NCBI GenBank assembly: GCA_009778475.1
Contig: WRJS01000002.1
Coordinates: forward strand, 3,836 to 67,835
Direction: 5' to 3'
DNA: 64,000 nt
Source of the DNA: Kiritimatiellota bacterium
GTDB taxonomy: Bacteria; Verrucomicrobiota; Kiritimatiellia; RFP12; UBA1067
The position numbers and the translations under genes are program-made. Below, piece after piece: positions 2,987 through 48,826 of this stretch. Within the stretch, counting starts at the first letter, position 1, and each line of letters starts with the position of its first letter. Under the pieces are notes generated by a model. That model was not told the origin of the DNA. It made no database searches and saw nothing but the letters and a program-made list of their open reading frames with translations.

Positions 2987-4102
2987 TCATTCCTCATTTG
3001 CAAACAGCAGCGTCCCGAAGCCCGGCTGGTCGCGGTCGTGACCTTCGGGTCGGGTTTTGCCGAGGACCTGCGCGGTGTAGGGCATCGGGAGGCCTTTGCG
3101 CCCGGCGAAATGGTTGTGGGCGATTTCAAAGACGGGCATGAAGCGGCCGCGCCCGGACTCCGAGATTTCCGCCCAGCGGCAATACTTCCCCGTGACGTCC
3201 GTCCAGCGGGCGAACGGGACGTCGTGGCCGAGGTTGTAACGCGCCACATACTCGTAGCCTTTCATCAGGCGGTTGTCGAGCGCGAAGTAGAGGTCGTCAC
3301 CCTGCTGCCACGCCAACTCGCACACCGTCGCCATGGCGCCGAGGCCCAACATGCAGTGCGGCTGGTCGCGCCCGCTCTCCTGCACCTGCCCGGTCTCGCC
3401 GCTGATGTAATGCGCGATGGTCCCGTTGTCGCGGGCATGGAGGTAGAAGTCGCGGGCCTTGGCGTACATCGCCCGGTCGTCCAGGTGGATGGCCGCGGCC
3501 ATGTAGGCCTTGGTGACGACGGGGCCCCAGTTGCCGTTGGTGTACGGCTCACGCGCGTAGAAGCGCTCCATCACGGGGATGAAAATTGTCTTGAACATGC
3601 GGGCGGCGGCGGCGAGTTGCGCTGCGTCGGCACCGGGCCAAGTGTGCTTCAGCGCCTCCAGCGCATAGACTATCTTGAACCCCTCCAGTCCAGCCAGCAG
3701 GGGGGCATCGTTGGTGTCGGGAATCTCGCGCAGGGTGTCGGCATACGCGGCCAGGATGGCGAGCGACCTCTGCGCATGCGCCTCGTCGCCGGAGAGGATC
3801 CACATCAGGGCGTTCTGATAGGCCGCGCTGAAATCGGCCTCCATCTTGCCCTTGGTGTGACGGAACTCCCCGTCGCGCGAGATGGCCGCGAACGGGCCCT
3901 CCATCACATAATCAGACTGCGAGCACTTGTGCCCCGCGAGCAGGCGGTAAGAGCCGTAGGCCGGCTCCGCCTTGCCCGCCACCGACCGGCGCATCCTGTC
4001 CATGCCCTCGCGCGTGTGCAGCACACCGGGATGGGCGAACCCCTGCGCGAGCGCGGGAACGGCCGCAAGGCAGGACAGGAGGGCGATGGCAGAACGTTTC
4101 AT
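2987..4102 (-). CDS. secreted polysaccharide lyase-like protein (alginate-lyase-family-like; assignment tentative)
   Basis: Sec signal peptide MKRSAIALLSCLAAVPALA at the internal ATG (track ORF extends to 4168). An NGNWG motif resembles the NNHSYW motif of AlgL-type lyases. The overlapping + strand ORF is an Ala/Arg/Gly-rich shadow. Confidence 0.4.
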   Translation of the reverse strand: MKRSAIALLSCLAAVPALAQGFAHPGVLHTREGMDRMRRSVAGKAEPAYGSYRLLAGHKCSQSDYVMEGPFAAISRDGEFRHTKGKMEADFSAAYQNALMWILSGDEAHAQRSLAILAAYADTLREIPDTNDAPLLAGLEGFKIVYALEALKHTWPGADAAQLAAAARMFKTIFIPVMERFYAREPYTNGNWGPVVTKAYMAAAIHLDDRAMYAKARDFYLHARDNGTIAHYISGETGQVQESGRDQPHCMLGLGAMATVCELAWQQGDDLYFALDNRLMKGYEYVARYNLGHDVPFARWTDVTGKYCRWAEISESGRGRFMPVFEIAHNHFAGRKGLPMPYTAQVLGKTRPEGHDRDQPGFGTLLFANEE

Positions 4103-8585: not shown

Positions 8586-11500
8586 TTACTCGAAAAGAAT
8601 CTGCCCCCAGTTCTTGGGCTCGAGCTTGAGCTCGAACACGTCGTCGGCGACGATGCCGGTGGCTTGGTTGCTCCAGTGGCTGCGGAGGATGGTCTTGGCG
8701 CCTTCGGGGTCGCCGAAGGTCGCGCCGATGTCGCCGGTGTAGGTGGTGCCGGGCGCGGGGGTGAAGCCGATGTCTTTGAGGGGTATCGCGGCCTGGACGA
8801 TGTAGTCGCGGCCGGGGGTGGCCTTCACCTCGATCTTGGCGTTGTCGAGGGTCTTGACGCATTGCATCTCGTAGCCGTCGCGGATGACGCCGGAGTAGAA
8901 TTTGCGGGGGCGTTTCTCGTCGGACACGGGTTTGAACAGCACGGCGGCGGGGGTGCCTTTGAGGTTGCCGATGGAGATGCGGAGGTCGCCGAGGACGGGG
9001 GCGGTGCGCTTCCTGTCCGCGCTGGCGTCGGTGCCGAGCTGGAAGTCGACGGTGTCGCCGCGGGAGTACATCTCGGCGGCCTCGGAGGCGCCGTTGGTGG
9101 CCCAGGGGGTGGCGTCGGTGACTTTCCAGCCGAGGTAGAGCATGGCGTCGTCGTAGCCGATGGCGAACTCGACCCTGTCGGTGGGCTTCTTCTCGAATTT
9201 CATGAGCTCGCGCACGTTGAAGTCGCGGCGGATGTCGCCGGTGAAGTTGGTGACGGAGTGTTTCTTGGCGGTGGCGAGGCGCGCGCCGACGCCGGCCTGC
9301 GCGAGCTTGTCGCGGATCTCCATCACGCGGGGGAGGTCTTGGGCGGTGAGGGTGAGGGTGCCGCCTTGGAGCGCCCTCACGGTGTCGAGGCCGGTGACGC
9401 GGTGGTTGACGTAGGCGGTCTTGCCGGCCTGGAGGTAGAGGTGGCCGTCGTCGGCGATCGTGACGGAGCCGCCGAAGTCCTCCGCGCCCATGCCGGGGGG
9501 GATGTTGTCGGTGACGGCGCCGGGGACGGCGGCCTCGGGGAAACTAATCTTGGCGGCGTCGGACTCGAAAAGCTGGGTGAGGTAGAAGCCGCCCTCGGTG
9601 AGGATGTGCCACATCCCCTTGTCGGTGGCGATGACGAAGAAGTTGCCGATGGGCGCGGGGAGTTTGCCGACGCCGACGATGTCGTAGGCGGCGTTGATCA
9701 TGCCGGGCTGGGCGGGGGGGGCGTTGTGGCCGCCGTGCACGCCGACGTAGTTGTTGGGGTACGTCCATTTCAGTTTGCCGCTGGCGATGTCGTAGCAGGG
9801 GAAGTCGCTGTGGTTGACGCCGTAGTGGCCGTTGTAGAGGACGAGCGAGCCGTCGGCCGACCCGATGCCCCGTTGCGCCCCCATGCCGCCGCGCCGCTCG
9901 ATGTCCTCGGGCGCGGGCAGGCGGGTGGCCTTGGTGAGGTCGTAGCGCGGTGCGCCGCATTTCGTCCAGCCCGTGGGCGCGATGCGGTAGAGGCCGCCGT
10001 AGAACGTGAGGCCGGGGGTCATGGGCATATACCAGCCCGACACCCACCCGCCGAGTTCCACCATTTGCTCCGTGACCTCGCCGGGCTGCTCGATGCCGTC
10101 GCCGTTGGCGTCGCTCCAGATGCGGATGCCGCTGATTTTCCCGTTGGGATGGCCGTTGCCCCCGATCTTGTCCGCGAGCGCGTCGAGGCGCGCGCGGAGG
10201 CGGTAGTCGCCGGGGGCGAGGCGCTCGTAGATGTACACGGGCTGGTAGCCGTGGTAGTCGCCGCTGACCGCGACGTAGAGGCGGCCGTTGTCGCCGCGGG
10301 AGAAGCGGCAGGTGCCGCATTCGCCGCGGTGGAACACGCCGACGCATACGGCGCGACCCGTCGCCTTGTCGAGCTTCCATTCGCAGCCGCTGCCGGCCAT
10401 GACGAGCGGGTCGGCGGGCGAGATCGCGCCGCCGGGCGCGCCGTAGTGCGTGGGGCCGAAGAACTCGCGGATGAACTTGCCCGTCGCGGCGTCCCAGCAC
10501 GAGAAGCGCTTGGGGTGGTCGTCCTGCTCGGCGACCCAGAGCGTGCCGTGCTTGTCGAGGCGCACGGCCGCGATGAACCGCATCCCGTCTTTCTTCCATG
10601 GCCCGAACAGCGGGCGGCCGCCCTTCTTGCCGATGGCGCGTTTGGCCTTGCCGTCCTTGTTGAACACCTTGACCTGATTGTCGGGGTCGCGCACGCCGAC
10701 ATAGAAGTTGCCTTCCGCGTCCACGGTGAGGCACGTCGCGTTGATGATCCCCTCGATGCGCACGGCGGTCGTGCCGTCGGGCTTGACCTCGAGGACGCTC
10801 GCCTTGAACTCTTGGAACGTCGTCACGCCCTTCTTCGTCTCGAGGCGCATCTCGTCGTTCGCGAGCGCGTACAGCGTGCCGTCCGGCGCGACGGTCAGGT
10901 TGATGATGTCGCGCACGGGAATGCTCTTGGCCTGCTTGCCGGTCTTTGCGCTGAGCACGCGCACGGTGTTGCTCTGCGCGAGGTAGAGGTTGCCGTCGTA
11001 GGCGTCCAGCCCGACAAGCCCCTTGCCGACCGCCACCGTCGCGAGGCTCGAGCCCTCGAAGTTGATGTAGTCGCTCTTCGCCGTCGAGATGCGGTAGATG
11101 ACCCCGTCGTCCTGCCAGTCATAGACGTAGGCCATGCCGTTGTCGAGCGCGACGTGGGCCGCCCCGCCGAAGCCGCCGCGCTTGTGGCGCCACTTCACGT
11201 TACCCTCGAAGTCCGCGCACACGAGCGCCTTGCCCGCCTCCGAACAGTTCCAGCCCAAGTACATGCTCTCCCCGTCCGTCGCGAGTGCGCTGGGGTTGCC
11301 CATGTCGCCGCCCCAGTTGCCGCCCGGCGAGTCGTAGGGTGTCCTGCCCGCGTTGTCCGCCCACCCCACGAGGCGCAGGCCGATGCCCGTGTGGAAGATG
11401 GCCTCCCATGTGTACGCCCCCTCCGGCACGGGTTCGCCCGGCTTCAGGTGGCTCATGTTCGTCAGCCCGTCCCACGGCACGGTGTGCTTGCCCTTCGCAT

Positions 11501-23000: not shown

Positions 23001-24022
23001 CGCAACAGATGCTGTGGTGCGACTCGGGGTATGCGCTCACCACGACCGCCGTCACCGCCGTCGTCCTGATGCGGCCGCGCGAGGACCTGCTCAACAACGG
23101 GCGCCTCATGGCCACATGGCGCGACACCGGCCCCGACTTCAACTCCCTCGACGGCGCGACGCTCCTCTACTACACCGCCGGAAACGGGGGGCGCTGGCAG
23201 ACCCACCACATGAACCAATCGAAATCATACTGCACAAACGTGCTCCCCGAAACCCCCACCTGCCTCATCTCGCGCTTCGACGGCTACAACCACCGCATCA
23301 TCAAGGACGGCACGGAACTGTGCTCCGTCGAGACGGCCGTGAGCGCGTTCAACGCGAACCGCCTCGCCATCGGCGGCCGCCGCTCCGCACAACAGAACGA
23401 GAACGAGTGGTACAACGGCGACGTGGCCGAGGTGCTGGTCTTCGACTACGCGCTCACGCCCGGCCAGTACCAGACCCTGATGAAATACCTGACGCAAAAA
23501 TGGCTCGCGCCGACGCCGCCCGAGCCATGGGATGCCGGGAAGGACATCGAGGTCTGCGCGGACGCGCTGCTCGACACGCGCGGCGCGGCGGCCCTCGCCC
23601 TCTCCGGCGGCGACGCGCTGTACGGCGCCGGAACAATCCTCGGCGACGTGACCGTGGGCGACGGCGGCCGACTGTCCGCCACCGGCCCGCAGCTGACCAT
23701 TGACGGCGACTTGGCGATGCAGGGCGGCGCGCGTCTGGCGGTCGATTACAGCGGCGGTCTGCGCCCGCTGGTCTTCGCCTCCGGGGAACTGACACTGGCG
23801 GATCTGAACGTCCTCGCCAGCGCGATGGAGCAGGTCGCCGGCGCCTCGACGCTCACCCTCCTGCAAGGCGGCACCGGCTGGAGCGACGGCGACGGCAACG
23901 CCCCCGACCCCGCTGGCTGGACGCTCACCGGCGGCATCAACGGCGCCACCTTCCGCCTCGACCCCGCCGCCTACCGCGTCAACCTCAAACTCTCACGCGG
24001 CACGATCCTGATGCTGAAATAG
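20039..24022 (+). CDS. secreted protein (1327 aa): PATR-type N-terminus, four LamG-like (concanavalin A-like) domains, shared C-terminal domain
   Basis: Signal peptide. DVFWCGAEGPDWHAAANWEDGAVPGVSDVAVFDPG. Four domains ending FNGDISEVLLYNRVLTEAEERHVFAYLNGKW, ...LLNEKW, ...YLREKW, ...YLTQKW (the Laminin_G_3 signature). Ends ...SRGTILMLK. Confidence 0.8.
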   Translation: MKSIPFVNVCVGLAVLACGGRTAVAADVFWCGAEGPDWHAAANWEDGAVPGVSDVAVFDPGQCAIGCWAFNVSNRVEVAGLRFAGLPRAVLGRGVGDGALAIGAGGVVVADGMVTLEMPLELGASQAWTVAEGAELLATGAMSLYGEPVLTKDGGGRVWLTGPGALAGRFRVAAGTLKTSRDAEAPVTEGLAVWLDAAATDTVVTNGAGEMTAWLSRVGGSAMAAVPGGGPRWVADALAGRPAARFSNASNQGMVMEAGYANTTNCATAFIVVQRRPEQKDNAGLLSIYRGGEQDYDQYHAGVFFHLPGAAPHRSVKGYRKSEDGGHAYFPFETPVCFMSRYDGVSHVIAQDNPFQRGTTGTHTNMFLPFDADRVVLANRAAPANGFNYPFNGDISEVLLYNRVLTEAEERHVFAYLNGKWGVAPSLEATLKKAAAHFDASQPETVATNTLGEVLAWTNLVSLENSELVPVTEGQNPLYVEGTIPAVRFDKNLTNALHMRPNWGYLNGSRTATLFAVVTPRGEQISYAGVASIGRLAGGTSDHGTAGCAAFLRLDNQNNEIWMGEQGGRSLGGAHVPPGRVSVVMSSFDNGMHAVCVNGALGRAPSMKDVTFEANYLRLGNRIAGNAGDGVFTFNGDVHEVLVFNCPLSEGEIAEITALLNEKWRGLDEIEDLLADAEVRFDASDEGSVTTNALGVVTALRNLNADSVAEIPAFGACDGPLYVDDAMNGLPVLRFRGALSNALLMTSGYANTNAALTAFAVVRCTENSSTDAGLLTIVRHDMLDYRYANSAVVMFNRTGRYDGWAGYRDNEERAKINDVPFGAPFLLMSRFDGMKHTLMLNNGHSASVAMVGRFDADRLLLGARQLYGPDDVVEFRSFLSCDLAEMLVYNRVVTPTEADAIHAYLREKWYPEMLPDALPELLDTALVWLDASDAATVTAAPDGRVTAWANRNDGAAVFVPPPGCGGPALVTDNMNGRPVLRFDKDLAPQQMLWCDSGYALTTTAVTAVVLMRPREDLLNNGRLMATWRDTGPDFNSLDGATLLYYTAGNGGRWQTHHMNQSKSYCTNVLPETPTCLISRFDGYNHRIIKDGTELCSVETAVSAFNANRLAIGGRRSAQQNENEWYNGDVAEVLVFDYALTPGQYQTLMKYLTQKWLAPTPPEPWDAGKDIEVCADALLDTRGAAALALSGGDALYGAGTILGDVTVGDGGRLSATGPQLTIDGDLAMQGGARLAVDYSGGLRPLVFASGELTLADLNVLASAMEQVAGASTLTLLQGGTGWSDGDGNAPDPAGWTLTGGINGATFRLDPAAYRVNLKLSRGTILMLK
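20600..23503 (+). other. four consecutive LamG-like domains within the 20039..24022 gene
   Basis: Domain ends at about 21305, 22030, 22765 and 23503, marked by NG[DK]..E[VM]L[LV][YF]N..L[ST]..E...[LY]...W. Confidence 0.65.
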
Positions 24023-24176
24023 TTTTACGGGAAACAACTGTCCTGATAATGGAGGGCGAGCGTCCCCGCGAGCCGCCACGCGATTCAAATTACGATAGTG
24101 ACGTTACTCAACATTAGTACACAAGGGGCGAAGCCCCGCAAGCAGTAGCGTAGGGCAGAGCCCTAGCCCTGTAGAG

Positions 24177-25217
24177 TCAGAATGCGTGGCCTGCTTCCGT
24201 GCTGACCGTCCGCCCGAGCGCGGTGAGGCGTTCGCAGGTGCGGCGGAAGCTGGCGTCACCGCCCTCGTCCACGCTGGGCTTGCCGGGGTAGAGCTGGTAG
24301 AGGCGGCGGTATTTCGCGGGCGTGATGTTCGGCATGAAGATGTTTGCGCCGCACTGCATCACGCGGTCGCGGCCGTCGGGGTCGAGCGCGTCGAACGCGG
24401 TGGTCGAAGGGATATGCGCGTGCGGGTTCAGGATGCGGAGCAGGGCCATGGCCGCGTAATAGACGCTGCGGTGCTCGAGCGTGGGCTTGCCCGCCAGCGG
24501 CGTGCCGGGGTGTGCGAGGAACGGACCGCAGCCGATCATCTGGAGGTTCAGTTGTGTCGTGAACGCGATGTCGCGCGCGATCTGCTCCAATGGCGCATCG
24601 GGCAGTCCGATCATAAAGCCGCTCCCGACCTGATACCCCAGTTCGCGTAAGTCTTGGAGACAGGCGATGCGCTCCGCAAATGCGCAGTCAGGATGGATGG
24701 CGTTAAACAGCGTTTCGGAGGAGGTCTCGAAACGCAGGAGGTAGCGGTCGCACCCGGCCGCTTTCAGTTCCGCAAGCTCCCCGCGTGTCCGCACGCCGAC
24801 GGACAACGTGACCGCAAGCCCCGTCTCGTTTTTGATACGGCAGATGATTGCGCTCAGCACAGGCGCGGTGAAGAAGGGGTCTTCGCCCGACTGCAACACG
24901 ACCGTGCCGCACCCGAGGCGTTTGGCGGTGAGTGCGGTCTCGAGAATTTCGTCCGCGCTCATGCGGTAGCGCGTGATGGCGCTGTTGCTGCAGCGGATGC
25001 CGCAATAGAGGCAGTCGTTACGGCAATGGTTGGAGAACTCGATGATGCCGCGAATGTGCACCGTGTCCCCGAAGACGCGCGCGCGGATCTGGTCCGCCTC
25101 CGCGCACAACGCGCCGAACGCGGCGGGGTCGGTGGCGGCCTGCGAGAGAACCTCCGTTAACGCGCATGGGGTTAGCTTGGCGGGGTCGATGGGGTCTGTG
25201 GAGTGGTTTAGCATCAT
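24177..25217 (-). CDS. radical SAM protein, HydE/PylB/BioB-like
   Basis: CRNDCLYCG (CX3CX2C) motif and C-terminal MPNITPAKYRRLYQLYPGK, which is characteristic of HydE/PylB. Start chosen at the internal MM (25217), because the upstream track extension translates repeat element B1. Confidence 0.65.
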   Translation of the reverse strand: MMLNHSTDPIDPAKLTPCALTEVLSQAATDPAAFGALCAEADQIRARVFGDTVHIRGIIEFSNHCRNDCLYCGIRCSNSAITRYRMSADEILETALTAKRLGCGTVVLQSGEDPFFTAPVLSAIICRIKNETGLAVTLSVGVRTRGELAELKAAGCDRYLLRFETSSETLFNAIHPDCAFAERIACLQDLRELGYQVGSGFMIGLPDAPLEQIARDIAFTTQLNLQMIGCGPFLAHPGTPLAGKPTLEHRSVYYAAMALLRILNPHAHIPSTTAFDALDPDGRDRVMQCGANIFMPNITPAKYRRLYQLYPGKPSVDEGGDASFRRTCERLTALGRTVSTEAGHAF

Positions 25218-25369
25218 GGTTGGTTTTGGGTTGGTTTGGTTGGTTTGGTCGGTTTGGTTTTTCGACTGATGGCGACTGATACCGACTGACTTCGACTTAA
25301 GTCGAACATTCGATTTCAATCGACATCAGTCGGCATCAATCGACATCAGTCGAAAAAACGATCCCTCCA
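25218..25369. repeat. family-B composite repeat element B1: (GGTT(T)G)n microsatellite + imperfect palindrome of TCGAYTGA 10-bp units centred on CTTAAG
   Basis: ggttggttttgggttggtttggttggtttggtcggtttggttttt, then cgactgatggcgactgataccgactgacttcgaCTTAAGtcgaacattcgatttcaatcgacatcagtcggcatcaatcgacatcagtcgaaaaaa. Confidence 0.75.
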
Positions 25370-26092
25370 TCAATCAATCCCCTTTGTCCCTTTGCAGTCC
25401 GGGTAGCCTGTGCACCCCCAGAACAGGCCTTTTGCGGATTTGCGTTTCTTCATGGGTTTTCCGCAGGAGGGGCAGGCGGGGGCGTCTTCTTGGCTTGCCC
25501 TTGCTTCGACACGGATTGCTGTCAGCTTTTCACGGAAGCCGCCTTCTTCTTTGAAACGTCTGCCCTGCGCTTCCAGTTGATGGCTCAGCATGTTCAATGT
25601 CCGCGCGCTCAAGATCAGCAGGGTGTTAGCAACCGTCGTGGCATCTTCCGCGTTGAGCCATTGGGCAAACCTGCGCTTCTGCTCGAGGATGTGTGAGCAA
25701 GCGTCATGCACGATGTCCGGACCATAAGCTGGCGCATCTAAGCGGAGTGCAAAAATGGTCTGCGCCTCGCCCGAGTCTTTGCGCCACGGGACATGGCCAT
25801 GACGCATCAGCCAGTTCAAGAAGTCGCCGTGAAGTTCCGTCAGGCTCGCGCGCGCCACGTCTGTGAGTTTCATTTCGGTTTCCTTGGATGTCGCGCCACG
25901 GGCAGAGCCCTCTGCGATATTTGCGCATCCTGAGCGCGCCGCCTGGGTCATCTGGTCAGACAGGCGACCGCAAGGGTCATTCGTGCGGTTCAGGAAACGG
26001 AGGCAGAAGTCCTGCGTCGCCAGATAGACGACATTCGCCAGCACCCACGAATCCAGCCGGAAGTGCCCGACGGTTCCGCCAAACATACTCAT
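25370..26092 (-). CDS. four-helix-bundle protein (23S rRNA-intervening-sequence/Avd-like fold) fused to a C-terminal topoisomerase-type C4 zinc ribbon
   Basis: ANIAEGSAR and surrounding helices match the 'four helix bundle protein' family. C-terminal CPSCGKPMKKRKSAKGLFWGCTGYPDC matches zf-C4_Topoisom. Start at internal MSMFGG (AGGAAC RBS). The upstream track extension translates element B2. Confidence 0.6.
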   Translation of the reverse strand: MSMFGGTVGHFRLDSWVLANVVYLATQDFCLRFLNRTNDPCGRLSDQMTQAARSGCANIAEGSARGATSKETEMKLTDVARASLTELHGDFLNWLMRHGHVPWRKDSGEAQTIFALRLDAPAYGPDIVHDACSHILEQKRRFAQWLNAEDATTVANTLLILSARTLNMLSHQLEAQGRRFKEEGGFREKLTAIRVEARASQEDAPACPSCGKPMKKRKSAKGLFWGCTGYPDCKGTKGID

Positions 26093-26099
26093 GGTCTTG

Positions 26100-26262
26100 T
26101 TCCTTTCTTTTTCGTTTTGGGTTGGGGTTGATTGTTTTTTTCGATTGAAATCGACTGATGGCGACGGATGTCGATTGAAATCGAATACTCGGCTTAAGCC
26201 GAAGTCAGTCGCCATCAGTCGATTTCAGTCGAAAAAAACAATCCCCAGCGTCTCCGCCGTCC
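26100..26262. repeat. family-B composite repeat element B2 (near-perfect palindrome including flanking T7/A7 runs), overlapping the rnhB stop
   Basis: gggttggggttgattgtttttttcgattgaaatcgactgatggcgacggatgtcgattgaaatcgaatactcggCTTAAGccgaagtcagtcgccatcagtcgatttcagtcgaaaaaaacaatc. The rnhB stop (26205-26207) lies about 10 nt from the palindrome centre. Confidence 0.75.
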
Positions 26263-26909
26263 CATCCGCCAAACCCCGGCAGCCGCTGCTCAACATCCTG
26301 CACGGGGCGGAAGGTGCGGCGGTGTTCGGGGCAGGGGCCGTGCTTGTGGAGGGCGGCGATATGCTCGCTCACGCCGTAGCCTTTGTTCGCGTCGAAGCCG
26401 TAGTGCGGGTATTGCGCGTGGAGGCCGCGCATGAGGCGGTCGCGGGAGACTTTGGCGATGACGCTGGCGGCGGCGATGAGGAAACTCTTGGAGTCGCCGC
26501 GCACAATCGGCGTGGAGGGACAAGGCAGGCCCTTCACGGCAAGGCCGTCAACCAGCGCATGGTCGGCCTTCACCGGCAACGCCGCGATCGCGCGGCGCAT
26601 GGCGGTGTGGGTGGCGACGAGGATGTTGAGGCGGTCGATCTCCTGCGCGGTGGCGGCGCCGACGCCCCATGCCACGCCGTCGGCCTGCGTCAGTTGCGCG
26701 AAGAACTGCTCGCGCTGGGCGGGCGTGAGTTGCTTGGAGTCCGTGAGCCCCGCGAGCGGGCCGGCGTACAATTCTTCGGCCCGTTCGGGGGGCATGGAGA
26801 CCGCGCCCGCGACAACGGGACCTGCGAGGCAACCACGCCCAGCTTCGTCCACCCCGGCGAGGATGATGGCGGGCGACGATGCCCAGAGTCTTCGTTCGTA
26901 GCTCAGCAT
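26205..26909 (-). CDS. rnhB: ribonuclease HII
   Basis: ILAGVDEAGRGCLAGPVVAGAV N-terminal catalytic motif and DSK...RNase HII core. The last ~15 codons run into repeat element B2. Confidence 0.85.
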   Translation of the reverse strand: MLSYERRLWASSPAIILAGVDEAGRGCLAGPVVAGAVSMPPERAEELYAGPLAGLTDSKQLTPAQREQFFAQLTQADGVAWGVGAATAQEIDRLNILVATHTAMRRAIAALPVKADHALVDGLAVKGLPCPSTPIVRGDSKSFLIAAASVIAKVSRDRLMRGLHAQYPHYGFDANKGYGVSEHIAALHKHGPCPEHRRTFRPVQDVEQRLPGFGGWDGGDAGDCFFRLKSTDGD

Positions 26910-27017
26910 GAGAGAATGATTGATTTTAGATTTGAGAATGAAAATTCACCCTGTTAATCCTGTCGGAAATAAATGCCCGTTTTAATTGAACCGTTGGGTA
27001 GAAGGCAGACCTTGCCT

Positions 27018-28397
27018 CTATTCTGCCAGCGCGCTCAGCATCAGGCTCGCCCACGTCATCACCTGCGTGAACTGGTCGAGGCCGAAGGACTCGTTGGGGC
27101 AGTGTATCTTGTCCTCCTCGCGGCCGAAGCCCACCAGCAGGGGCGCGGCGCCGGAGATGTGGCGGAGGGTCGCGATGACGGGGATGGAGGCCCCCTCCCA
27201 GCGGAACACCGCGCCGCGCCCGTCCATCTGCCCCAGCACGTCCGCCGCCAAGCGGAACACGGGCGAGGCCAGCGGCAGGCGGAACCCCGGCGCACCACGG
27301 CAGGCATCCGAAAGCGTCAGCCTCATGCCCCGCGGGCAACGCGCCTCCAAGTGCTTCTTCACCGCCGCGAACGTCTCGGACGGCACTTGGCGCGGCACCA
27401 GCCTCATGCTCAGTTTCGCCACCGCCGCCGCAGGGATGACGGTCTTCGACCCCGGCCCGCCGTAACCCGAGTGGATGCCGTTGATTTCAATCGTCGGCTG
27501 GAAACTGCCGCGCGTCACCGCGTCCTCGCCCTGCGCCCCTCCGGCGGGCGGGCAACCCACCTCCGCGCGGTACTGCTCTTCCGAGGACGCCGATGCCGAC
27601 GCACGTTCATGCTCCTCTGCCGTCGGCGGCTCCACGAGGTCGGCGAATCCCTTCACCGCGATGCTCCCGTCCGCGTTGTGCAGCGAGGCCAGCAGCCGCG
27701 CCATGCCCTGCGCCGGGTTCGGCGCGACGCCCCCGTGCACGCCCGAATGCAGGTCGTGCGACGGCCCCTCCAGCGTCACCGTGAAATGCTGCACGCCCCG
27801 GAGCCCGGCCACGATGGCCGGCCGCCCGTCGGGACCGCACGACGTGTCACATGCCATCAGCACATCCGCCTGGAGGCGCGGCGCCAGCGCATGGGCCAGT
27901 GCCGACAACACCTCGCTCCCGCTCTCCTCCTGGCCTTCGACGACAACCTTCAGCGTCGGCAGCGGCTCGCCCGCCTCGACCATCGCGCGCACCCCCATGA
28001 GGAAGCCCATCATCTGCCCCTTGTTGTCCTGCGCCCCCCGCGCATACACGCGGCCATCCGCGAGCGTCGGCTCGAACGGCGGCGTCTGCCACTCCGTCAG
28101 GGGGTCTTCGGGCTGCACGTCATAATGGCCATAGAACAGCACCGTCATTCCCGTGCGCTCCCCCTGCCGCTCCGCGAACACCACCGGCACGGGCAGCCCA
28201 GCCCCCTCCGCCGTCATGATCTCCACCTCGAACCCCAGCGGGCGCAGGAAGTGTTTCAGCCCCGCCGCCGCGCGCGCGCAATCGCCCAGCCGCCTCGGGT
28301 CCGCCCCCATCGTCGGCAGTTTCAGGAGCGTGAACCATTCCTCCAGCACCGCATCCCTGTTGGCATCAAAATACGCCCTCGCAAATGTACCATCCAT
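27018..28397 (-). CDS. M20-family metallopeptidase (dipeptidase-like)
   Basis: HYDVQP, ARGAQDNKG and EGQEESGS metal-binding/catalytic motifs with an M20 dimerisation-domain architecture. 459 aa. Confidence 0.75.
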   Translation of the reverse strand: MDGTFARAYFDANRDAVLEEWFTLLKLPTMGADPRRLGDCARAAAGLKHFLRPLGFEVEIMTAEGAGLPVPVVFAERQGERTGMTVLFYGHYDVQPEDPLTEWQTPPFEPTLADGRVYARGAQDNKGQMMGFLMGVRAMVEAGEPLPTLKVVVEGQEESGSEVLSALAHALAPRLQADVLMACDTSCGPDGRPAIVAGLRGVQHFTVTLEGPSHDLHSGVHGGVAPNPAQGMARLLASLHNADGSIAVKGFADLVEPPTAEEHERASASASSEEQYRAEVGCPPAGGAQGEDAVTRGSFQPTIEINGIHSGYGGPGSKTVIPAAAVAKLSMRLVPRQVPSETFAAVKKHLEARCPRGMRLTLSDACRGAPGFRLPLASPVFRLAADVLGQMDGRGAVFRWEGASIPVIATLRHISGAAPLLVGFGREEDKIHCPNESFGLDQFTQVMTWASLMLSALAE

Positions 28398-28436: not shown

Positions 28437-30428
28437 TCACTCCTTCTCCTTCAACTTTTTTAGCCGCTCCGTTGCCGTCTTGCGGACAACATCGCTTCTG
28501 TCTTGCGCCGCAATCTGCGCAAGCAGCGCGAGGTCATCTATATTCTCCAGTGCCGCCCCGCGCACGTATTGGTCATCCCTTGTGTTCCTCACGATTCCCG
28601 CAAGGACCGCCTGATCCGTGATCTTGGACACGGCCTCGCGGCGACCGATCATTGCCCTCGCCTCATCCTTCGCAATTTCCGCAAGGAGTGTCTGGTTGGT
28701 AAGCTCCCGCACGGCCGTGGAAGCCAACCTCGGTTCTTTGTCATTTTTTGCAAGTTCCGCGAGAAGCGCCTGATCCGTGAGTTTGCGTATTGCCATTAGG
28801 CGCACATGAATATCATACGCGTCACGTTGCGCGATTTCCGCAAGGACCGCCTGATCCGTAATCTTGCCCATGACGATGTTGCACACACTCGGCTCCTTTT
28901 CACCCTTCACGACTTCCGCAAGGGCCGCCTGATCGGTGAGTTTCGTGATTATCATACCGCGCACCTGCCCGTCCTTTTCATCTTTCGCGATTCCCGCAAG
29001 GACGGCCTGATCCGTGATTTTACTTATTGCCGTGCCGCGCACCTGCTTGTTCGTTTGCTTCTTCATGACTTCCGCAAGGGCGGCTTGATCCGTGAGTTTC
29101 CGCACGGCAATGTGACGCACCAGATCGTCCTTGTCACTTTTCGCGATACGCGCGAGGGCGGTCTGATTGTTGAGCCTGCTTGTCGCCTCCGCGCGCGCGT
29201 CTCGGTCTGTGCTTTCCTTCGCGGTTTTCAAAAGTTGTTCTTGGTCGGCGGCTTTTTCAGGGGCCGCGGGAGCAACACCCGCGCCCTCCTCCTCGGTTTG
29301 CACAGGAAGTGCGACACCCTTCTTCAATTGCTCCAGCCGTGACGCCGCCCGTAGGCGCATTTCTCTGCTTTTGTCATCCTTGGCTAATTGCGCGAGAAGA
29401 GCCTGATCTTCTAATCTCACGACAGCCTCCCAACGTATCGACCATTCTTTTTCTTTTGTCATGATTTCCGCAAGGGCGGCTTGGTCGGTGAGTTTCCGCA
29501 CGGCCGCCGAGCGTACCTGCGAGTCCTTGTCTGTCTTTGCAATCTCGGCAAGAAGCACTTGGTCTTTCAACAGTTTCACAGCCTCCCGGCGAACACTTGA
29601 ATGTTCGTCGTTTTTCGCAATCCGCGCAAGGAGAGCCTGATCCGTGAGCCTTGCCGTAGCCTCCCAGCGCATCCAAGGGTTCTTGTCCTCCGTTGCCATC
29701 TGCGTGAGGAACGCTTGGTCATCGAGTTTGGATGCCGCCTCTATGCGCACAAACACGTCCCGGTCAGTCATGAAGATCTCTTCAAGAACCGCCCGGCTAT
29801 CCAGTCTTGCCACAACCGCCCGGCGCACATCCCTATCTTCCTTCGTATCCTTGGCGATCTGCGCGAGAAACGCCTGATCCGTGATTCGAGGCAAAACCTC
29901 TAGGCGTACATCATTGTTTTTCCCGTCCCTCGCGATTTCCAGAAGAAGCGCCTCGTCCGTGATTTTGGATAACGCCTCAAAAGCAACGGGCAGACTCGAA
30001 TCGCTCTTCGCAATCTGCACAAGGAGCGCGGTGTCTTTGAGCCTGCGCACCGCCGACTGGCGCACGTTTGAATCCCCGTGCCGCTTCGCGATGTCCGCGA
30101 GAATCGCCTGGTCTTTAATCTGAAAGACCGCATGCACACGCGTCTCACTGACGTCACGCGCGGGTGTCTCCGCGACCTCTATGTTCCACACGATGTCCGC
30201 AAGGAGTGCTTGGTCTTTGATTTGGCTTACCGCAAATTGGCGCACTAAATAATCCTTGTCCGTTTTCGCGATTTGCGCAAGGCGTTTTTCATCCCTGATT
30301 GTGTGCAACTCCTCGAAACGCGCCTCCCAGCCCTCGTCATGCGTCGGGTACGGGTGGCTCCTCGCCATGCACTCGGAAGCCCCTGCCAGCAGAGCGAAGA
30401 GCAGCAGCAGATGTGTGAAGCGTCTCAC
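28437..30428 (-). CDS. secreted HEAT-repeat (PBS-lyase HEAT-like) protein with about 20 tandem ~31-aa repeats
   Basis: Signal peptide MRRFTHLLLLFALLAGA. Repeats of the form ...VR.AAV.KLTDQALLAEIAKNDK.... Confidence 0.7.
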   Translation of the reverse strand: MRRFTHLLLLFALLAGASECMARSHPYPTHDEGWEARFEELHTIRDEKRLAQIAKTDKDYLVRQFAVSQIKDQALLADIVWNIEVAETPARDVSETRVHAVFQIKDQAILADIAKRHGDSNVRQSAVRRLKDTALLVQIAKSDSSLPVAFEALSKITDEALLLEIARDGKNNDVRLEVLPRITDQAFLAQIAKDTKEDRDVRRAVVARLDSRAVLEEIFMTDRDVFVRIEAASKLDDQAFLTQMATEDKNPWMRWEATARLTDQALLARIAKNDEHSSVRREAVKLLKDQVLLAEIAKTDKDSQVRSAAVRKLTDQAALAEIMTKEKEWSIRWEAVVRLEDQALLAQLAKDDKSREMRLRAASRLEQLKKGVALPVQTEEEGAGVAPAAPEKAADQEQLLKTAKESTDRDARAEATSRLNNQTALARIAKSDKDDLVRHIAVRKLTDQAALAEVMKKQTNKQVRGTAISKITDQAVLAGIAKDEKDGQVRGMIITKLTDQAALAEVVKGEKEPSVCNIVMGKITDQAVLAEIAQRDAYDIHVRLMAIRKLTDQALLAELAKNDKEPRLASTAVRELTNQTLLAEIAKDEARAMIGRREAVSKITDQAVLAGIVRNTRDDQYVRGAALENIDDLALLAQIAAQDRSDVVRKTATERLKKLKEKE

Positions 30429-36340: not shown

Positions 36341-38758
36341 ATGAATGTATTTTCTCGTGGACGGTGGACGTGGGGCGTCGGCGCCCGTTTGATGGGGGCG
36401 CTGGCGTGTGTGTGTTTGGGCGCGGTGGCGCTGGCGGCGGCGAAGGCGCCGGAGCGTGAGGAGGTGGCGCAGGCGCTGGAGGGGACGCAGCATAAGCGGC
36501 TGGACGCGAAGTCGGCGCTGCGGTTCTTCCAGTTGGTGACGGCGTTCGACGAGGCGACGAACAAGGTCGCGGTCGCGGCGGCGGCGTATGCGGAGGCGGC
36601 GGTGAAGGCCCAGTCGCTGGAGGCGGAGCACGCGGAGCGGTTCGGGCTGGACCCGTCGAAGCAATACCTCTATGAGCACGCGAGCGGGAAACTGTTCCGG
36701 CTGGAGGTGCAGGACGGCAGGCCGCCGAAGGTGGTGCGCATCGCGGAGCGGCGGATGGAGCCGGAGGAGGGCAAGGCGTACCTCGCGGCGCAGGGCGCGC
36801 GGGTGGAGGCGATCGCGGGCCAGCAGGCGGCGACGGAGGTCATCGCGGCGGAGGAGGCCGCGGCGGCGGCGGCGCTGGTGGCGCTGCGCAAGGAGTTCGG
36901 CGTGGATGACCATGCGTGGGCGGACCTGTACCTCGTGCCGGGGCGCACGGATGTGATGCTGGTGCAGGGGCGGTACCCGGTGCTGCCGCCGGTGCCGGTG
37001 GTGCCGACGAAGGACGGGGAGGTTCCGGCGGGGACGTTCTGGGTGCATGGCGTGAATTTCGCGTTCCCGGAGGGGAGCGGGCGGGTGATGGCGCGGCTGG
37101 CGGATGCGGCGGCGCGGCTGGACGCGGCGGCCCCGGCGGAGCTGACGCATGAGTCTGAGGAGTGGGGCAAGGAGCAGGTGGAGGTCGCGGACTTGGCGGC
37201 GGTGCTGCGCAAGGGGCGCGTGTCGGTGGGCGAGGGCGCGGTGGCGGTGCGCTCGCAGGTGCGCAACGGGGAGTTCGTCGCGCCGGGGTCGGTGATGCCG
37301 GCGGTGTCGAACCTGCTGGAGTCGGTGCGCGCGTCGGGCTTCTACATCGCGGGGCTGAGCCGCCCGATCGAGCCGCCGGTGGACGGCGTGCTGACGGTGC
37401 ATCTGGACCCGGGCAGGGTAGGGGACGTGACGGTGGCGTTTCAGGGCAAGGACGGCGAGGAGGGCGAGCCGTCGGAGACGGGGCGCTGGTTCTCGGGCGA
37501 TCAGATCCGGCGCAACTTCGAGCGTTCGGCGCCGGGGCGGCCGTTCAATTACGGTGCGCTCTATGACGCGCTGGCCGGGGTGAACGAGAACCCGGACCTT
37601 GCGGTGGACACGGATGTGAAGGTCCGGCAGGAGCAGGGCGAGGACGGCGCGGTGTCGCGCGTGGCGGACCTGAAGTTGGACGTGCGCGAGTCGATGCCGA
37701 TCCACGGGGCGGTGCAGGTGGGCAACGACGGGAGCAAGCAGTCGGGCAACTGGTGGGCGGGCGCGTCGCTGCGGCACCACAACCTGACGCGGCACGAGGA
37801 TATCCTTTCGGTGGAGGCGCAGGTGGCGCTGAAAGACGCGTCGATGTGGGCGGTGCAGGGCAGTTACCTCTTGCCGCACAGCCTGTGGCTCGGCGGGACG
37901 ATCGGGGTCTATGGCGGGTATTCGGAACTGAACATCAATGACTTGGTGCCGGACATCGGCGTGAGCGGGATGGGCAAGTACGTGGGCCTGCGCTTGTCGC
38001 AGCGTCTGCTGGAGACGCGGATGCACCGCATTGAGTTGGCGCTCGGGCAGACGTTCCGCTGGACGACGGAGAATCTGGAGTTCGCCGGGTACGCCGTGGA
38101 CAAGCGCGACGCGATGATCGCGCCGTATTATGTGCAGTTGCTCTGGCAGCAGAAGATGCTGGACGCGCTGGCGGGGCGTACGTTCGCGATGCTGGAGGCG
38201 TCGCACAATTTCAAGGGCTGGCTCGGCACGCCGTCGGATCTGGATTCGCTGCGCATCGGGGCGGACGGGGATTATACGGTCGGGCGCGCGCAGGTGGCGC
38301 GTCTGCAGGCCCTGAGCAAGGGGTCGGGCGACGGGCTGGATTCGCGCTGGACGCTGTTCGCGCGGGCGACGGGGCAGGCCTCGGATTCGCCGCTGGTGGC
38401 GATGGAGCAGTTCGGGCTGGGCGGGATGTCCACGGTGCGCGGTTATGCGGAGCGCGAGTTGCTGGGCGACAGCGCGTTGTTCGCGTCGCTCGAGGTGCGC
38501 ACGCCGGTGCTGCGCCTGTTTGACGACCTGAAGGACCGCTTGCAGTTCGTGGCGTTCCTCGACTCGGGCTGGGCGGACCTGCGCAACACCCAGCCGGGCG
38601 AGGACGGCGACACGTACCTGCTGAGCGCGGGCCTCGGGCTGCGCTACGCGGTGTGGAAGAACGCGATGCTGCGTTTCGACTGGGGCTTCCCGCTCGAGAA
38701 GACGTTTGACTCGGACAGCAAGGGGCGCGGGCACCTGAACCTGCAACTTCAATTTTAA
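36341..38758 (+). CDS. two-partner secretion outer-membrane transporter TpsB (ShlB/FhaC family) with an unusual ~260-aa Ala-rich N-terminal extension
   Basis: POTRA-like region, GGMSTVRGY signature, beta-barrel with alternating hydrophobics, terminal ...LNLQLQF (C-terminal Phe). Signal peptide present. The minus-strand 807-aa ORF is shadow. Confidence 0.8.
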   Translation: MNVFSRGRWTWGVGARLMGALACVCLGAVALAAAKAPEREEVAQALEGTQHKRLDAKSALRFFQLVTAFDEATNKVAVAAAAYAEAAVKAQSLEAEHAERFGLDPSKQYLYEHASGKLFRLEVQDGRPPKVVRIAERRMEPEEGKAYLAAQGARVEAIAGQQAATEVIAAEEAAAAAALVALRKEFGVDDHAWADLYLVPGRTDVMLVQGRYPVLPPVPVVPTKDGEVPAGTFWVHGVNFAFPEGSGRVMARLADAAARLDAAAPAELTHESEEWGKEQVEVADLAAVLRKGRVSVGEGAVAVRSQVRNGEFVAPGSVMPAVSNLLESVRASGFYIAGLSRPIEPPVDGVLTVHLDPGRVGDVTVAFQGKDGEEGEPSETGRWFSGDQIRRNFERSAPGRPFNYGALYDALAGVNENPDLAVDTDVKVRQEQGEDGAVSRVADLKLDVRESMPIHGAVQVGNDGSKQSGNWWAGASLRHHNLTRHEDILSVEAQVALKDASMWAVQGSYLLPHSLWLGGTIGVYGGYSELNINDLVPDIGVSGMGKYVGLRLSQRLLETRMHRIELALGQTFRWTTENLEFAGYAVDKRDAMIAPYYVQLLWQQKMLDALAGRTFAMLEASHNFKGWLGTPSDLDSLRIGADGDYTVGRAQVARLQALSKGSGDGLDSRWTLFARATGQASDSPLVAMEQFGLGGMSTVRGYAERELLGDSALFASLEVRTPVLRLFDDLKDRLQFVAFLDSGWADLRNTQPGEDGDTYLLSAGLGLRYAVWKNAMLRFDWGFPLEKTFDSDSKGRGHLNLQLQF

Positions 38759-38916
38759 GGGACGCGGGGACTATGATGATGGCGATGGGACTACAGGACT
38801 ACGGGACACCGGGACTACGGGGCGGGGACTGCGGGACGCGGGGACACACGTTCCGTCGTCCCGAAATCGCAGTCCTGTCGTCCAGAGTCCGTCGTCCCCA
38901 AAATGAGGAGAACAAA
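38759..38916. repeat. family-A intergenic element A1 (GGGAC-tract / GTCCC-tract imperfect palindrome)
   Basis: gggacgcggggac...gggactacaggactacgggacaccgggactacgggg...ccgtcgtcccgaaatcgcagtcctgtcgtccagagtccgtcgtcccc, followed by GAGGAG-N7-ATG of tpsA. Confidence 0.7.
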
Positions 38917-44802: not shown

Positions 44803-45220
44803 GGAGAGTGTGGAGAGTGGAGGGTGGAGAGTGGAGTTGCGAAGGGACGATGGGACAAGGGGACGCAAGGACGATGATGATGGCGGATTTGGGGACTACG
44901 GACTACAGGACTACAGGACTACGGATTGGGGACGAAGGGACGCAAGGACAGTGATGATGGCGGAGGGACTACAGGACTACGGGACTACGGGACTACGGCT
45001 TTCGGGACGTGGGGACGCGGGGACATGGGGACAGCGGCTGCTTAAAAGCCGTTGTCCCGTTGTCCCGTGTCCCGTCGTCCCGAAAGCCGCCGCCGCCGTC
45101 CCCTCGTCCCCTCGTCCCCCCACAACTCCACTCTCCACACTCCACTCTCCACACTCCTCTTTCCACACTCCACTCTCCACCCTCCACTCTCAACACTCGC
45201 CCCACCGTCCCCTCGTCCCG
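44803..45220. repeat. family-A element A2: ~400-bp composite imperfect palindrome (GGAGAGTGGAG arms, GGGACTACGG repeats, G4 motif, 12-bp stem hairpin, CCCGT tracts)
   Basis: Left arm gagagtgtggagagtggagggtggagagtggag pairs with right arm ctccactctccacactccactctccacactcc. Core gggacgtggggacgcggggacatggggacagcggctgcttaaaagccgttgtcccgttgtccc. Internal duplication of a gatgatggcgga..ggactacgg module. Confidence 0.8.
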
Positions 45221-45223
45221 ATA

Positions 45224-48743: not shown

Positions 48744-48805
48744 TGGGTTGATTTTTCGACTGAAGTCGAGTGAAATCGACTGAGGGCGACTGAAATCGGG
48801 TTAAG
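48744..48805. repeat. family-B element B3 (truncated: GGGTTGATTTTT + TCGACTGA units + GTTAAG centre, right arm missing)
   Basis: gggttgatttttcgactgaagtcgagtgaaatcgactgagggcgactgaaatcgggttaagtcgag. Confidence 0.65.
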
Positions 48806-48826
48806 TCGAGCATTTGGAGAGAAATT

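Follow-up and report, generated by a model that had tools for sequence, protein, structure and literature searches.

To our knowledge, dispersed palindromic repeats are known from a few well-studied phyla, and the sole clear partnership so far between a gene and such a repeat family is that of REPIN with RAYT, in which RAYT genes are flanked by their own REPINs and the repeats decay once the gene is lost. Avd-type four-helix bundles, as seen for the Avd of a Bordetella phage, oligomerise and bind nucleic acids, and ORFs of the Pfam family PF05635 that reside in 23S rRNA intervening sequences (IVS) are enclosed by RNase III stems. Stems of 45–55 bp are classical RNase III substrates. Here we describe a genomic signature of the REPIN/RAYT type for another protein family, one that is uncharacterised and highly conserved, in a superphylum that has been little studied; the repeats are unusual in being built from short units. 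The main point, absent from the original prediction, is that a gene for a four-helix-bundle protein (the 4HB gene) is bracketed by two of the elements, B1 and B2, and that this bracketing is conserved across its homologs.

The window, that is the whole stretch of DNA analysed, comprises 64,000 nt of contig WRJS01000002.1 from a Kiritimatiellota bacterium, and results for the source genome are limited to these 64 kb. The B family has three copies in it (Table 1). The window contains 13 sites of the octamer TCGAYTGA (expected 3.6 +/- 2.1), a count reached in 0 of 100 shuffles, and 11 of the 13 sites fall inside B1, B2 and B3. At least four CGA trinucleotides at an exact spacing of 10 bp are found solely at 25263-25305, 26142-26184 and 48757-48789, and the window holds no such CGA runs at periods of 7, 8, 9, 11 or 13. 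TCGA as a restriction or methylation target was rejected, there being no depletion outside the elements (O/E 1.1). We propose the class name ‘tandem-unit palindromes’ for elements whose arms consist of head-to-tail units of 7–10 bp, here the 10-mer CGAYTGAnnn with its TCGA core. Rfam gave no window match at gathering score; matches with E up to 1 were just eukaryotic miRNA-precursor hairpins, far below gathering. The window also carries a further repeat family, GGGACTAC, and no second 4HB gene possibly paired with repeat family A was found in it.

Table 1 Coordinates of the repeat elements and associated genes within the 64,000-nt window
Feature	Position	Strand	Description
B1 imperfect palindrome	25246..25369	.	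T5 on 5' side, A6 on 3' side; centre 25307.5
G/T-rich 9-bp microsatellite, TGGTTGGTT x4.6	25217..25259	+	TRF, period 9, 85% matches
B2 imperfect palindrome	26130..26243	.	T7 and A7 flanks; centre 26186.5; two small tip hairpins
B2 G/T-rich terminus GGGGTTGATTG	26120-26133
B3 solo half element	48744..48810	+	GGGTTGATT-T5 terminus, five CGAnTGA units, GTTAAGTCGAGCAT
4HB gene, 240-aa protein	25370..26092	-	Four-helix bundle (TIGR02436 / PF05635-like), TIGR04258 ‘suffix’ domain, C-terminal Top1-type C4 Zn ribbon
rnhB (RNase HII)	26205..26909	-	Last 12 codons and stop inside B2
hydE ([FeFe] hydrogenase maturase)	24177..25217	-	TIGR03956, 305.6 bits; gene downstream of B1

B1 and B2 are imperfect palindromes of ~115–125 nt made of 10-bp CGAYTGA units, with stems of 45–55 bp, and their ends read GGGRTYG-T5-7 ... 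A5-7-CRAYCCC. The arms of B1 (25246-25306 and 25309-25369) are 61 nt each and 79% complementary, its stem pairing with 41 matches and 8 mismatches, while those of B2 (26130-26184 and 26189-26243) are 55 nt each and 84% complementary. Predicted RNA folding energies are -69.1 (- strand) and -63.6 kcal/mol (+ strand) for B1 (z -10.1 and -9.0) and -72.4 (- strand) and -81.5 kcal/mol (+ strand) for B2 (z -11.3 and -12.9), values equalled by 0 of 200 shuffles. The hexamer CTTAAG (25296-25301 in B1, 26194-26199 in B2) forms the loop of one of two tip hairpins and lies ~9 nt away from the symmetry centres. Compared as inverted sequences the cores of B1 and B2 are 85% identical over 101 nt, against 73% as direct sequences, so the two stand in mutually inverted orientation. 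B3 has tandem units of period 10 (5.4 copies), is 78–86% identical to the B1 and B2 arms, and shows no hairpin fold above chance (z -1.4). It ends where the symmetry centre would be, having one arm only, and is a decayed solo copy, placed between the stop codon of the gene at 47751-48743 and the SD/ATG of that at 48827-50605. The true G/T microsatellite is confined to B1, with B2 and B3 carrying just a short GGGTTGATT(G)T5-7 terminus. On the coding (-) strand the B1 microsatellite reads as a C/A-only leader, (CCAAACC)n, that ends at the hydE ATG (25217). Leaders composed of C and A only also follow arrays in the homolog loci L104, L139, L153 and L155; among the leaders of relatives, 4 of 68 are C/A-rich and none of 68 is G/T-rich.

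These results bear on the architecture that the original prediction, made from the letters of the window, had ascribed to three sites. The 10-bp-unit elements are real and non-random, and B3 was rightly called a half element; being half only, it does not share the full architecture, nor is a microsatellite common to the three. B2 had been described as an almost perfect palindrome of ~130 bp and does form a palindrome between homopolymer flanks, but an imperfect and shorter one. CTTAAG, formerly regarded as the centre, is not at the centre of either palindrome, and the rnhB stop codon (26205-26207, - strand), placed about 10 nt from the apex, lies 6 nt away from CTTAAG and ~19 nt away from where B2 is in fact centred.

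The elements had further been taken for bidirectional intrinsic terminators or attenuators that partition an rnhB / 4HB / hydE operon. They do resemble intrinsic (Rho-independent) terminators in having strong hairpins beside homopolymer A/T runs, and a terminator scan detected the small tip hairpins at CTTAAG, which have a T-rich stretch behind them. That scan, however, found 3 matches in place of 3.8 expected, hence no excess. In B1 and B2, moreover, T5-7 precedes and A5-7 follows the stem on both strands, a reversed polarity that excludes them as intrinsic terminators whichever way they are read. A T-rich 3' flank was present in just 9 of 64 elements of relatives, and convergent junctions were not enriched in elements. 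The stems are also ~5 times longer than those of intrinsic terminators (about 5–14 bp and G+C-rich). The upstream element stops ~15–45 nt before the next ATG, leaving no room for a promoter, and no promoter-like sites were found upstream of the 4HB gene or the downstream genes; downstream genes that lie so close and have no promoter of their own speak against termination, and attenuation is likewise not supported. We regard this reading as very improbable.

Of the domains in the 4HB protein, the Zn ribbon matches PF01396 at 6e-11, TIGR04258 scores 54 bits (cut-off 40) and TIGR02436 30.3 bits (cut-off 24), and PF05635 reaches 30.0 bits, under its cut-off of 33.8. Pfam and NCBIfam give 4HB, suffix and Zn-ribbon domains only, with no transposase domain. 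The AF2 model has a pLDDT of 87.6 with 2gsc and 2rld as best fold matches; no solved structures were found by sequence, and our literature search found no paper on the 4HB-suffix/Zn-ribbon subfamily. The protein has 2658 homologs at 64–82% identity, and its mean column identity is 75%. Homologs begin at the 26092 ATG, and the longer ORFs 25370..26215 and 24177..25319 translate through the repeats, as had been predicted. The repeats thereby mislead gene callers, extending these ORFs and adding an element-encoded C-terminus to rnhB, whose profile match stops near residue 205 of 234 and whose C-terminus is ~18 aa longer than that of the relative L161. They also break metagenome assemblies, most contigs with the 4HB gene being 1–5 kb long.

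The 4HB gene is bracketed upstream by B2 and downstream by B1, the latter lying upstream of hydE, in line with its predicted place between a four-helix-bundle and a radical-SAM gene. The 4HB gene is chromosomal, and hydE also follows it in a relative whose protein is 82% identical (L156). The rnhB-hydE interval varies among relatives; L161 has both rnhB and hydE, but a different gene on the opposite strand between them. No clean empty site for a 4HB cassette was found in relatives, and there is no transposase among the six neighbouring genes. A phage or defence origin was rejected, as viral contigs contained no 4HB relatives and PADLOC gave no match.

Bracketing was assessed in 80 metagenomic 4HB homolog loci, an array being a TRF tandem repeat of period 7–11 with at least 3 copies within 250 nt of the gene. 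Short-unit tandem arrays, many of them palindromic, lie upstream in 55 of 73 loci and downstream in 53 of 72, and flank the 4HB gene on both sides in 37 of 65. Other complete genes in the same loci have arrays at both ends in 16 of 225 cases (odds ratio 17, p 5e-17, p-values here being inflated by the phylogenetic non-independence of the 80 loci), and elements are present at ~36 of the 276 other junctions between genes. Folding follows the same pattern, with a median z of -2.7 for upstream flanks (29 of 68 below -3) and -1.7 for downstream flanks (21 of 67 below -3), against 0.07 for a control window inside the 4HB gene (0 of 72 below -3). Unit type and period follow the protein clade (9-mer GAATCGA, 10-mer TCGA types, 7–8-mer GGACTAC), and the upstream and downstream flanks of a locus always have their type in common. 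A Kiritimatiellia MAG with a protein 54% identical (L060) has the same arrangement. About a quarter of homolog loci are without an array on a given side (L157 has none upstream), and some flanks in L123, L139 and L156 are one-orientation arrays with no palindrome. The bracketing of the 4HB gene is conserved in most homolog loci despite change in both unit sequence and period. The original prediction had asked whether copies exist beyond the three; elements conserved in kind are present in relatives, with many intergenic copies.

The strict periodicity of the arrays, and a TCGA core invariant in most clades, would suit phased operators or iteron-like sites, each unit taking up one subunit of an oligomeric DNA-binding protein; that protein might be the Zn-ribbon protein encoded between the arrays, acting in autoregulation. 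One-orientation arrays show that a hairpin is not always required, and Avd-type bundles have the oligomerisation and nucleic-acid binding such a protein would need. The period, however, is 9 bp in most relatives, 10 in the window and 7–8 in others, giving no common helical phasing, so the idea of one unit per DNA turn was rejected; that a TGA every 10 nt supplies stops in three frames likewise holds for the window family and not generally, since 9-mers dominate. The unit sequence also turns over fully, from TCGA types to GGACTAC, at 56–69% protein identity, and arrays flank the gene at either end and recur at many further loci. We consider binding-site arrays quite improbable.

Copies within one genome at unrelated intergenic sites are 88–94% identical, which agrees with the REP-like family that had been proposed. 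In L076, for example, the upstream flank is 93.6% identical over 78 nt to a site 3 kb away and 89.5% to the downstream flank of the same locus. No target-site duplications beside B1, B2 or the L076 copies were recognisable by eye, and no parent IS with matching ends was found, the gene between matching ends being a non-transposase. A genome-wide pattern scan returned 74 loci, mostly unrelated tandem duplications of the ...TCGACTGA stop-codon region in Actinobacteria and Proteobacteria.

Such arrays might be neutral by-products of replication slippage, spread by gene conversion or recombination and without function, the 4HB gene having entered or been repeatedly exchanged at repeats so that a copy was left on each side. 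The unit number varies freely among copies, L076 and L079 differ by a 3-kb indel bounded by two direct copies, and the two flanks resemble each other more closely in direct than in inverted orientation at 39 loci, the reverse holding at 18. Similar TCGAYTGA-unit arrays appear in unrelated phyla, and the rnhB-hydE region differs among relatives, both of which would also fit. A single historical insertion, however, would not lead one to expect bracketing that outlasts the wholesale replacement of both unit sequence and period from one protein clade to another. The persistence of the 4HB gene beside hydE at 82% identity, and the tight, regular spacing of the elements to the stop codon and to the SD, likewise argue against a neutral origin, which we judge unlikely.

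All window copies lie between co-directional genes, from a stop codon to the next ribosome-binding site, and this placement, with the lack of promoter space or signal upstream of the 4HB gene, raises a reading in terms of RNA alone. The 4HB ORF would be a selfish or hitch-hiking promoterless cistron in a read-through transcript, its flanking stems being processing or stability sites of the RNase III type that free its mRNA and protect the mRNA ends of its neighbours, as in an IVS, with solo copies doing likewise between other cistrons. The length of the stems fits RNase III, some arrays are followed by unstructured C/A-only leaders, and whole-segment folding upstream is slightly better on the sense strand (44 vs 19, p 0.01). 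Pairing across the ORF is conceivable too, B1 and B2 being 85% complementary to each other. Stem mismatches, however, show no sense-strand excess of G.U (23 against 30 A.C), so that a role in RNA is not demonstrated; eight aligned copies with 25 pairs contained zero compensatory changes, these copies being too similar to one another. Elements occur at divergent (10) and convergent (5) junctions as well, B1 and B2 are opposite in orientation on one transcript, and half elements and one-orientation arrays are unable to form stems; for the orientation of solo copies relative to transcription there are few independent cases. An RNA-only account also leaves the bracketing of this particular gene in nearly all lineages unexplained, and we find it rather unlikely.

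The reading we prefer, with a probability of roughly one half, is that Kiritimatiellia and their relatives harbour a REP/ERIC-like family of dispersed palindromic repeats, associated in REPIN/RAYT fashion with a gene that does not encode a transposase. The repeats would behave like REP/REPIN or ERIC sequences, spreading or being homogenised at the DNA level as hairpin-forming units, and would be tolerated because their positions fall after a stop codon and ahead of the following ribosome-binding site. Co-transcribed as long stem-loops, they may segment or stabilise read-through transcripts, or be excised from them, without terminating them. They would act as RNA punctuation or as a DNA hairpin substrate. 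If a cognate factor binds the hairpins or maintains them, the 4HB protein is the foremost candidate, by analogy with RAYT genes and on account of its nucleic-acid-binding Avd/‘S23’ four-helix-bundle fold and its topoisomerase I-type Zn ribbon. The contact between protein and repeat is putative, and the conservation of the protein at 75% while the units differ completely between clades argues against sequence-specific recognition. Tentatively, and with the odds against it, the 4HB-suffix/Zn-ribbon protein, as the product of a host gene passed on vertically, could play the part of RAYT without being a transposase. It would recognise the tandem-unit palindromes of its own genome as hairpins or cruciforms, and would maintain, mobilise or exploit them. 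In that case the gene and its repeats would be a co-evolving pair across Kiritimatiellia, Lentisphaeria and Verrucomicrobiota, and the enigmatic ‘S23p/IVS protein’ family would gain a first function. A functional link would provide a testable role for a family related to DGR Avd and rRNA intervening-sequence ORFs, and a new model for the persistence of repeat families.

Among known systems, MITEs have terminal inverted repeats and a target-site duplication; here the whole element is an inverted repeat, with no duplication recognisable by eye. Integron attC sites and the Vibrio VCR are also imperfect palindromes of 60–130 bp that separate promoterless co-directional ORFs, with similar copies on both sides of a gene and an indel bounded by two copies. 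However, no integrase was found among the immediate neighbour genes, no R''/R' core sites (RYYYAAC / GTTRRRY) were seen at the element ends given above, and some of the genes separated here are housekeeping genes, while gene length extends to 9 kb. DGR Avd belongs to the same four-helix-bundle superfamily, and some 4HB homologs (L160 and the L076 group) adjoin a DGR reverse transcriptase and template repeat. Avd nevertheless lacks the extra Zn ribbon, and a tblastn query with the L160 DGR reverse transcriptase found none in the 64-kb window or in most homolog loci (6 of 80 metagenome loci, plus L160, have one).

The 23S rRNA IVS of Leptospira and Coxiella with a PF05635 (‘S23p’) ORF share the superfamily, its position between complementary sequences forming long stems, and a promoterless ORF that is part of the host transcript. 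The 4HB gene differs in being situated between rnhB and hydE and not in an rRNA gene (Rfam found no rRNA in the window), in having a palindrome of its own on each flank in place of the halves of one stem, and in encoding the additional suffix and Zn-ribbon domains. ERIC/IRU and BIME elements of Enterobacteria are imperfect palindromes of a like size (~100–130 bp), transcribed, intergenic, found in either orientation between co-directional genes and variable in copy number, yet they bear no sequence relation to the elements and have neither the short-unit periodicity nor a known dedicated flanked gene. Compared with REP/REPIN-RAYT of Enterobacteria and Pseudomonas, the 4HB gene has no HUH/Y1 (IS200/IS605-like) transposase domain, the elements consist of tandem 7–10-bp units without a GTAG-type REP head, the hosts are Kiritimatiellia, Lentisphaeria and Verrucomicrobiota, and mobilisation by the 4HB protein is entirely hypothetical. 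The resemblance lies in imperfect palindromes that seem to be dispersed over extragenic sites, in one conserved and vertically kept gene with copies of the repeat family of its genome at either end, and in a repeat family that changes with the clade of the gene it flanks.

The elements B1, B2 and B3, built of 10-bp CGAYTGA units, exceed chance by a wide margin at the three sites noted. The window has 13 copies of TCGAYTGA versus 3.6 ± 2.1 expected, 11 of the 13 falling inside an element, and chains of four or more CGA with exact 10-bp spacing are found at these sites only. At periods of 7, 8, 9, 11 and 13 the window contains no such chain. Single-strand folding of B1 and B2 gives -64 to -82 kcal/mol (z -9 to -13), and the half element B3 does not fold above chance. 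The palindromes had been described as centred on CTTAAG, which is incorrect: their symmetry centres lie at 25307.5 (B1) and 26186.5 (B2), about 9 nt from CTTAAG, itself the loop of one of two small tip hairpins. Aligned in inverted orientation, B1 and B2 match at 85% over 101 nt, against 73% in direct orientation, so the element has two distinguishable arms and the copies are oppositely directed. The shared architecture with a microsatellite holds for B1, which contains a true G/T microsatellite of 9-bp unit (25217-25259), but not for B2 and B3, which have in common only the short terminus GGGTTGATT(G)T5-7.

Repeat elements and neighbouring genes in the window
Feature	Position	Strand	Remarks
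B1 arms	25246-25306 / 25309-25369		61 nt, 79% complementary
B2 arms	26130-26184 / 26189-26243		55 nt, 84% complementary
B3	48744-48810		single arm; folding z -1.4
Second repeat family	38760-38900, 44806-45230, 47540-47725, 50620-50730, 62610-62700
hydE	24177-25217	-
240-aa protein (4HB gene)	25370-26092	-
rnhB	26205-26909	-
M20 peptidase	27018-28397	-	identified via comparison locus L001

The elements occupy the interval from a stop codon to the next ribosome-binding site, in the window about 40 nt ahead of the next start codon, and B2 had been likened to a bidirectional intrinsic terminator. On the + strand each element reads T-run, stem, A-run, and because the element is palindromic the - strand reads in the same order. 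Intrinsic termination requires a U-run after the stem; therefore neither direction qualifies. A consensus terminator scan gave 3 sites versus 3.8 expected, those hits being the small tip hairpins, and only 9 of 64 elements in relatives have a T-rich 3' flank, all of which makes terminators extremely improbable. No promoter-like sites were found in 24000-27200. The elements have long hairpin potential, with neither terminator polarity nor a promoter.

B2 lies directly upstream and B1 directly downstream of the gene for a 240-aa protein (the 4HB gene), which shares its strand with the M20 peptidase gene, rnhB and hydE. Three parts make up this protein: a four-helix bundle of the type named '23S rRNA intervening sequence protein' (TIGR02436 / PF05635), a 'four helix bundle suffix' domain (TIGR04258) and, at the C-terminus, a C4 Zn ribbon of Top1 type. 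AlphaFold models it with confidence (pLDDT 87.6), and the nearest solved structures, matching weakly, are uncharacterised four-helix bundles (2gsc, 2rld). The rnhB frame enters B2, its last 12 codons and stop being element sequence (26205-26290, - strand). The RNase HII profile match stops near residue 205 of 234 and the C-terminus is some 18 residues longer than in a relative (L161); B2 seems to have taken the place of the original rnhB end. A 78-bp tandem repeat (28894-29101; 2.7 copies, 75% matches) is located within a nearby HEAT-repeat gene (28437-30428, - strand).

Database relatives of the 240-aa protein number 2658 (64-82% identity), mostly on contigs of 1-5 kb, with Lentisphaerae, Kiritimatiellia, Verrucomicrobiota and Marinimicrobia as named sources. 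Clustered at 50%, the family has only 77 representatives with E 1e-30 or better, and alignment columns average 75% identity; it is therefore unusually conserved. Neither viral contigs nor the defence library contained it. Across 80 metagenomic loci selected by protein similarity alone, nearly all have arrays of short head-to-tail units on both sides of the gene, usually forming a palindrome. Some 15-45 nt separate the upstream array from the ATG, and some 10-25 nt separate the stop from the array downstream. Under a Tandem Repeats Finder criterion (period 7-11, at least 3 copies, within 250 nt of the gene), arrays were present upstream of 55/73 homologs, downstream of 53/72 and on both sides in 37/65 loci; for comparison, 16 of the 225 remaining complete gene predictions at these loci have them at both ends (odds ratio 17, p 5e-17; the loci are mutually related, making p-values optimistic, yet the effect is large). 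About 36 of 276 other gene junctions carry an element. When fixed 120-nt flank windows were folded against shuffles, median z was -2.7 upstream and -1.7 downstream, compared to 0.07 for a control window inside the gene, with z below -3 in 29/68, 21/67 and 0/72 windows, respectively.

In the closest relative (82% protein identity) the 4HB gene is again directly upstream of hydE, then follows a one-orientation TCAGTCG-unit array. The hydE frame of this locus (L156, 729-900) begins about 45 codons later than that of the window; the array directly adjoins the radical-SAM core, and gene prediction carried the ORF on across the array. This hydE could be a truncated gene or a misassembly at the repeat. 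L161, a relative whose hydE is 80% identical, has no 4HB cassette between its rnhB and hydE; another gene lies in this interval, as does a palindromic tandem repeat of a different kind (CCCCTTCATCAATGAAGGGGAAGTAAGGGGCA..., 3380-3510).

In most relatives the units measure 9 bp (GAATCGAnn plus its complement); one clade has 9-mers of TCGATAATn, several have 10-mers with a TCGA core, and a termite-gut clade has 7-8-mers (GGACTAC, GGACTTA) without any TCGA. Both flanks of a given homolog are always of one unit type, and this type, like the unit period, tracks the clades of a neighbour-joining protein tree. Units turn over while the bracket architecture persists, the repeats showing a strong, clade-tracking association with one gene. 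The GGACTAC type is also the window's other repeat family, located at junctions of the two-partner-secretion cluster and composed of nested palindromes of 7-8-bp units (GGGACTAC/GGGACGNN) with outer GGAGAGTG / CACTCTCC runs and the centre CGGCTGCTTAAAAGCCG. Together with B3 it fills almost every junction of this + strand cluster, whose first gene encodes a TpsB of ShlB/FhaC type (36341-38758). In another protein clade (L140, L141, L150, L151, L153), units of this type bracket the 4HB homologs. The window thus holds two repeat families but one 4HB gene in 64 kb.

A dispersed REP-like family, as originally suggested, is borne out by closely similar copies at separate sites within one metagenomic locus, L076. 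Over 78 nt its upstream bracket shares 93.6% identity with a copy located 3 kb off behind an unrelated gene, a match extending to the 'variable' spacer triplets; identity is 89.5% with the downstream bracket of the same gene and 88% with a third site. A 3.05-kb segment of L076 (1788-4985), comprising an ORF, an array, a DGR-type reverse transcriptase and a further ORF, is absent from L079 (4915-4985). The two direct 93.6% copies bound this segment, and L079 has one copy at the same junction of a murA-like gene and the 4HB gene; the repeats mark the boundary of an insertion or deletion. The elements are thus dispersed at high identity and associated with structural variation. Among solo copies, 21 lie in co-directional, 10 in divergent and 5 in convergent junctions, about as expected from how common each class is, and so they are not specific to 3' ends.

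The proposed genome-wide pattern search returned 74 loci (L002-L075) versus approximately 0.5 expected for random sequence, most of them unrelated, and did recover a Kiritimatiellia MAG with a 54% identical homolog, likewise bracketed, in this case by TCAGTCGA-type 10-mers. In Actinobacteria and Proteobacteria many genes terminate in 3-8 tandem copies of a 10-bp stretch around the stop codon (...TCGACTGAnn), which put TGA into all three frames and are unrelated to the 4HB repeats. Distant phyla have similar TCGAYTGA-unit arrays and palindromes, as seen in Bacteroidales MAGs (L011, L035, L042, L046, L056, L072, L073) and Myxococcota (L016, L022), and no 4HB-suffix gene was found in those 8-kb stretches. 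The two arms in L042 pair only via G.U on one strand, and the end of L035 (...TCGAACCAAAAACAATCCC) resembles that of B2 (...TCGAAAAAAACAATCCCC).

By analogy with RAYT, we give roughly even odds (about 0.5) to the elements behaving like REP/REPIN or ERIC repeats with the bracketed gene as their cognate factor. Against such a factor, the protein is not a transposase, a quarter of flanks are without arrays and some arrays are not palindromic. With so high a conservation it could not also read units this diverse in sequence, so recognition, if any, would have to be of structure. A neutral by-product of recombination we regard as quite unlikely, and protein-binding arrays as very unlikely. An RNA role, whereby the elements would process, stabilise or insulate segments of read-through transcript, possibly via RNase III, agrees with their positions and with the C/A-only leader that B1 gives hydE, yet stem mismatches have no sense-strand G.U excess (23 vs 30) and aligned copies no compensatory changes. 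A purely RNA-level, IVS-like reading we consider unlikely. For a protein family that is widespread but uncharacterised, the association suggests a role open to testing; full-text search found no published work on this suffix subfamily, nor on repeats of this sort in the bacteria concerned.

Some 4HB homologs adjoin a DGR reverse transcriptase and template repeat. The enzyme (IGNLTSQ motif, Pfam RVT_1) is encoded just upstream of a bracketed homolog in L160 (8377-10000), where an AAC-rich template-repeat-like stretch (~9430-9640) accompanies it, and in L076 (3186-4880). It is also present at L078, L081, L084, L086 and L098, giving 6/80 metagenome loci plus L160; none was found in the window. 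rRNA intervening sequences and DGR Avd are linked to the present system through the ORF family. ERIC and BIME repeats are alike in form, but the sequence here is unrelated and built of short units. Each RAYT gene lies between its own REPINs, and gene and repeats diverge together. The defining transposase of RAYT is absent here, so the system is not a REPIN/RAYT member, although REPIN/RAYT is its nearest analogue in logic.
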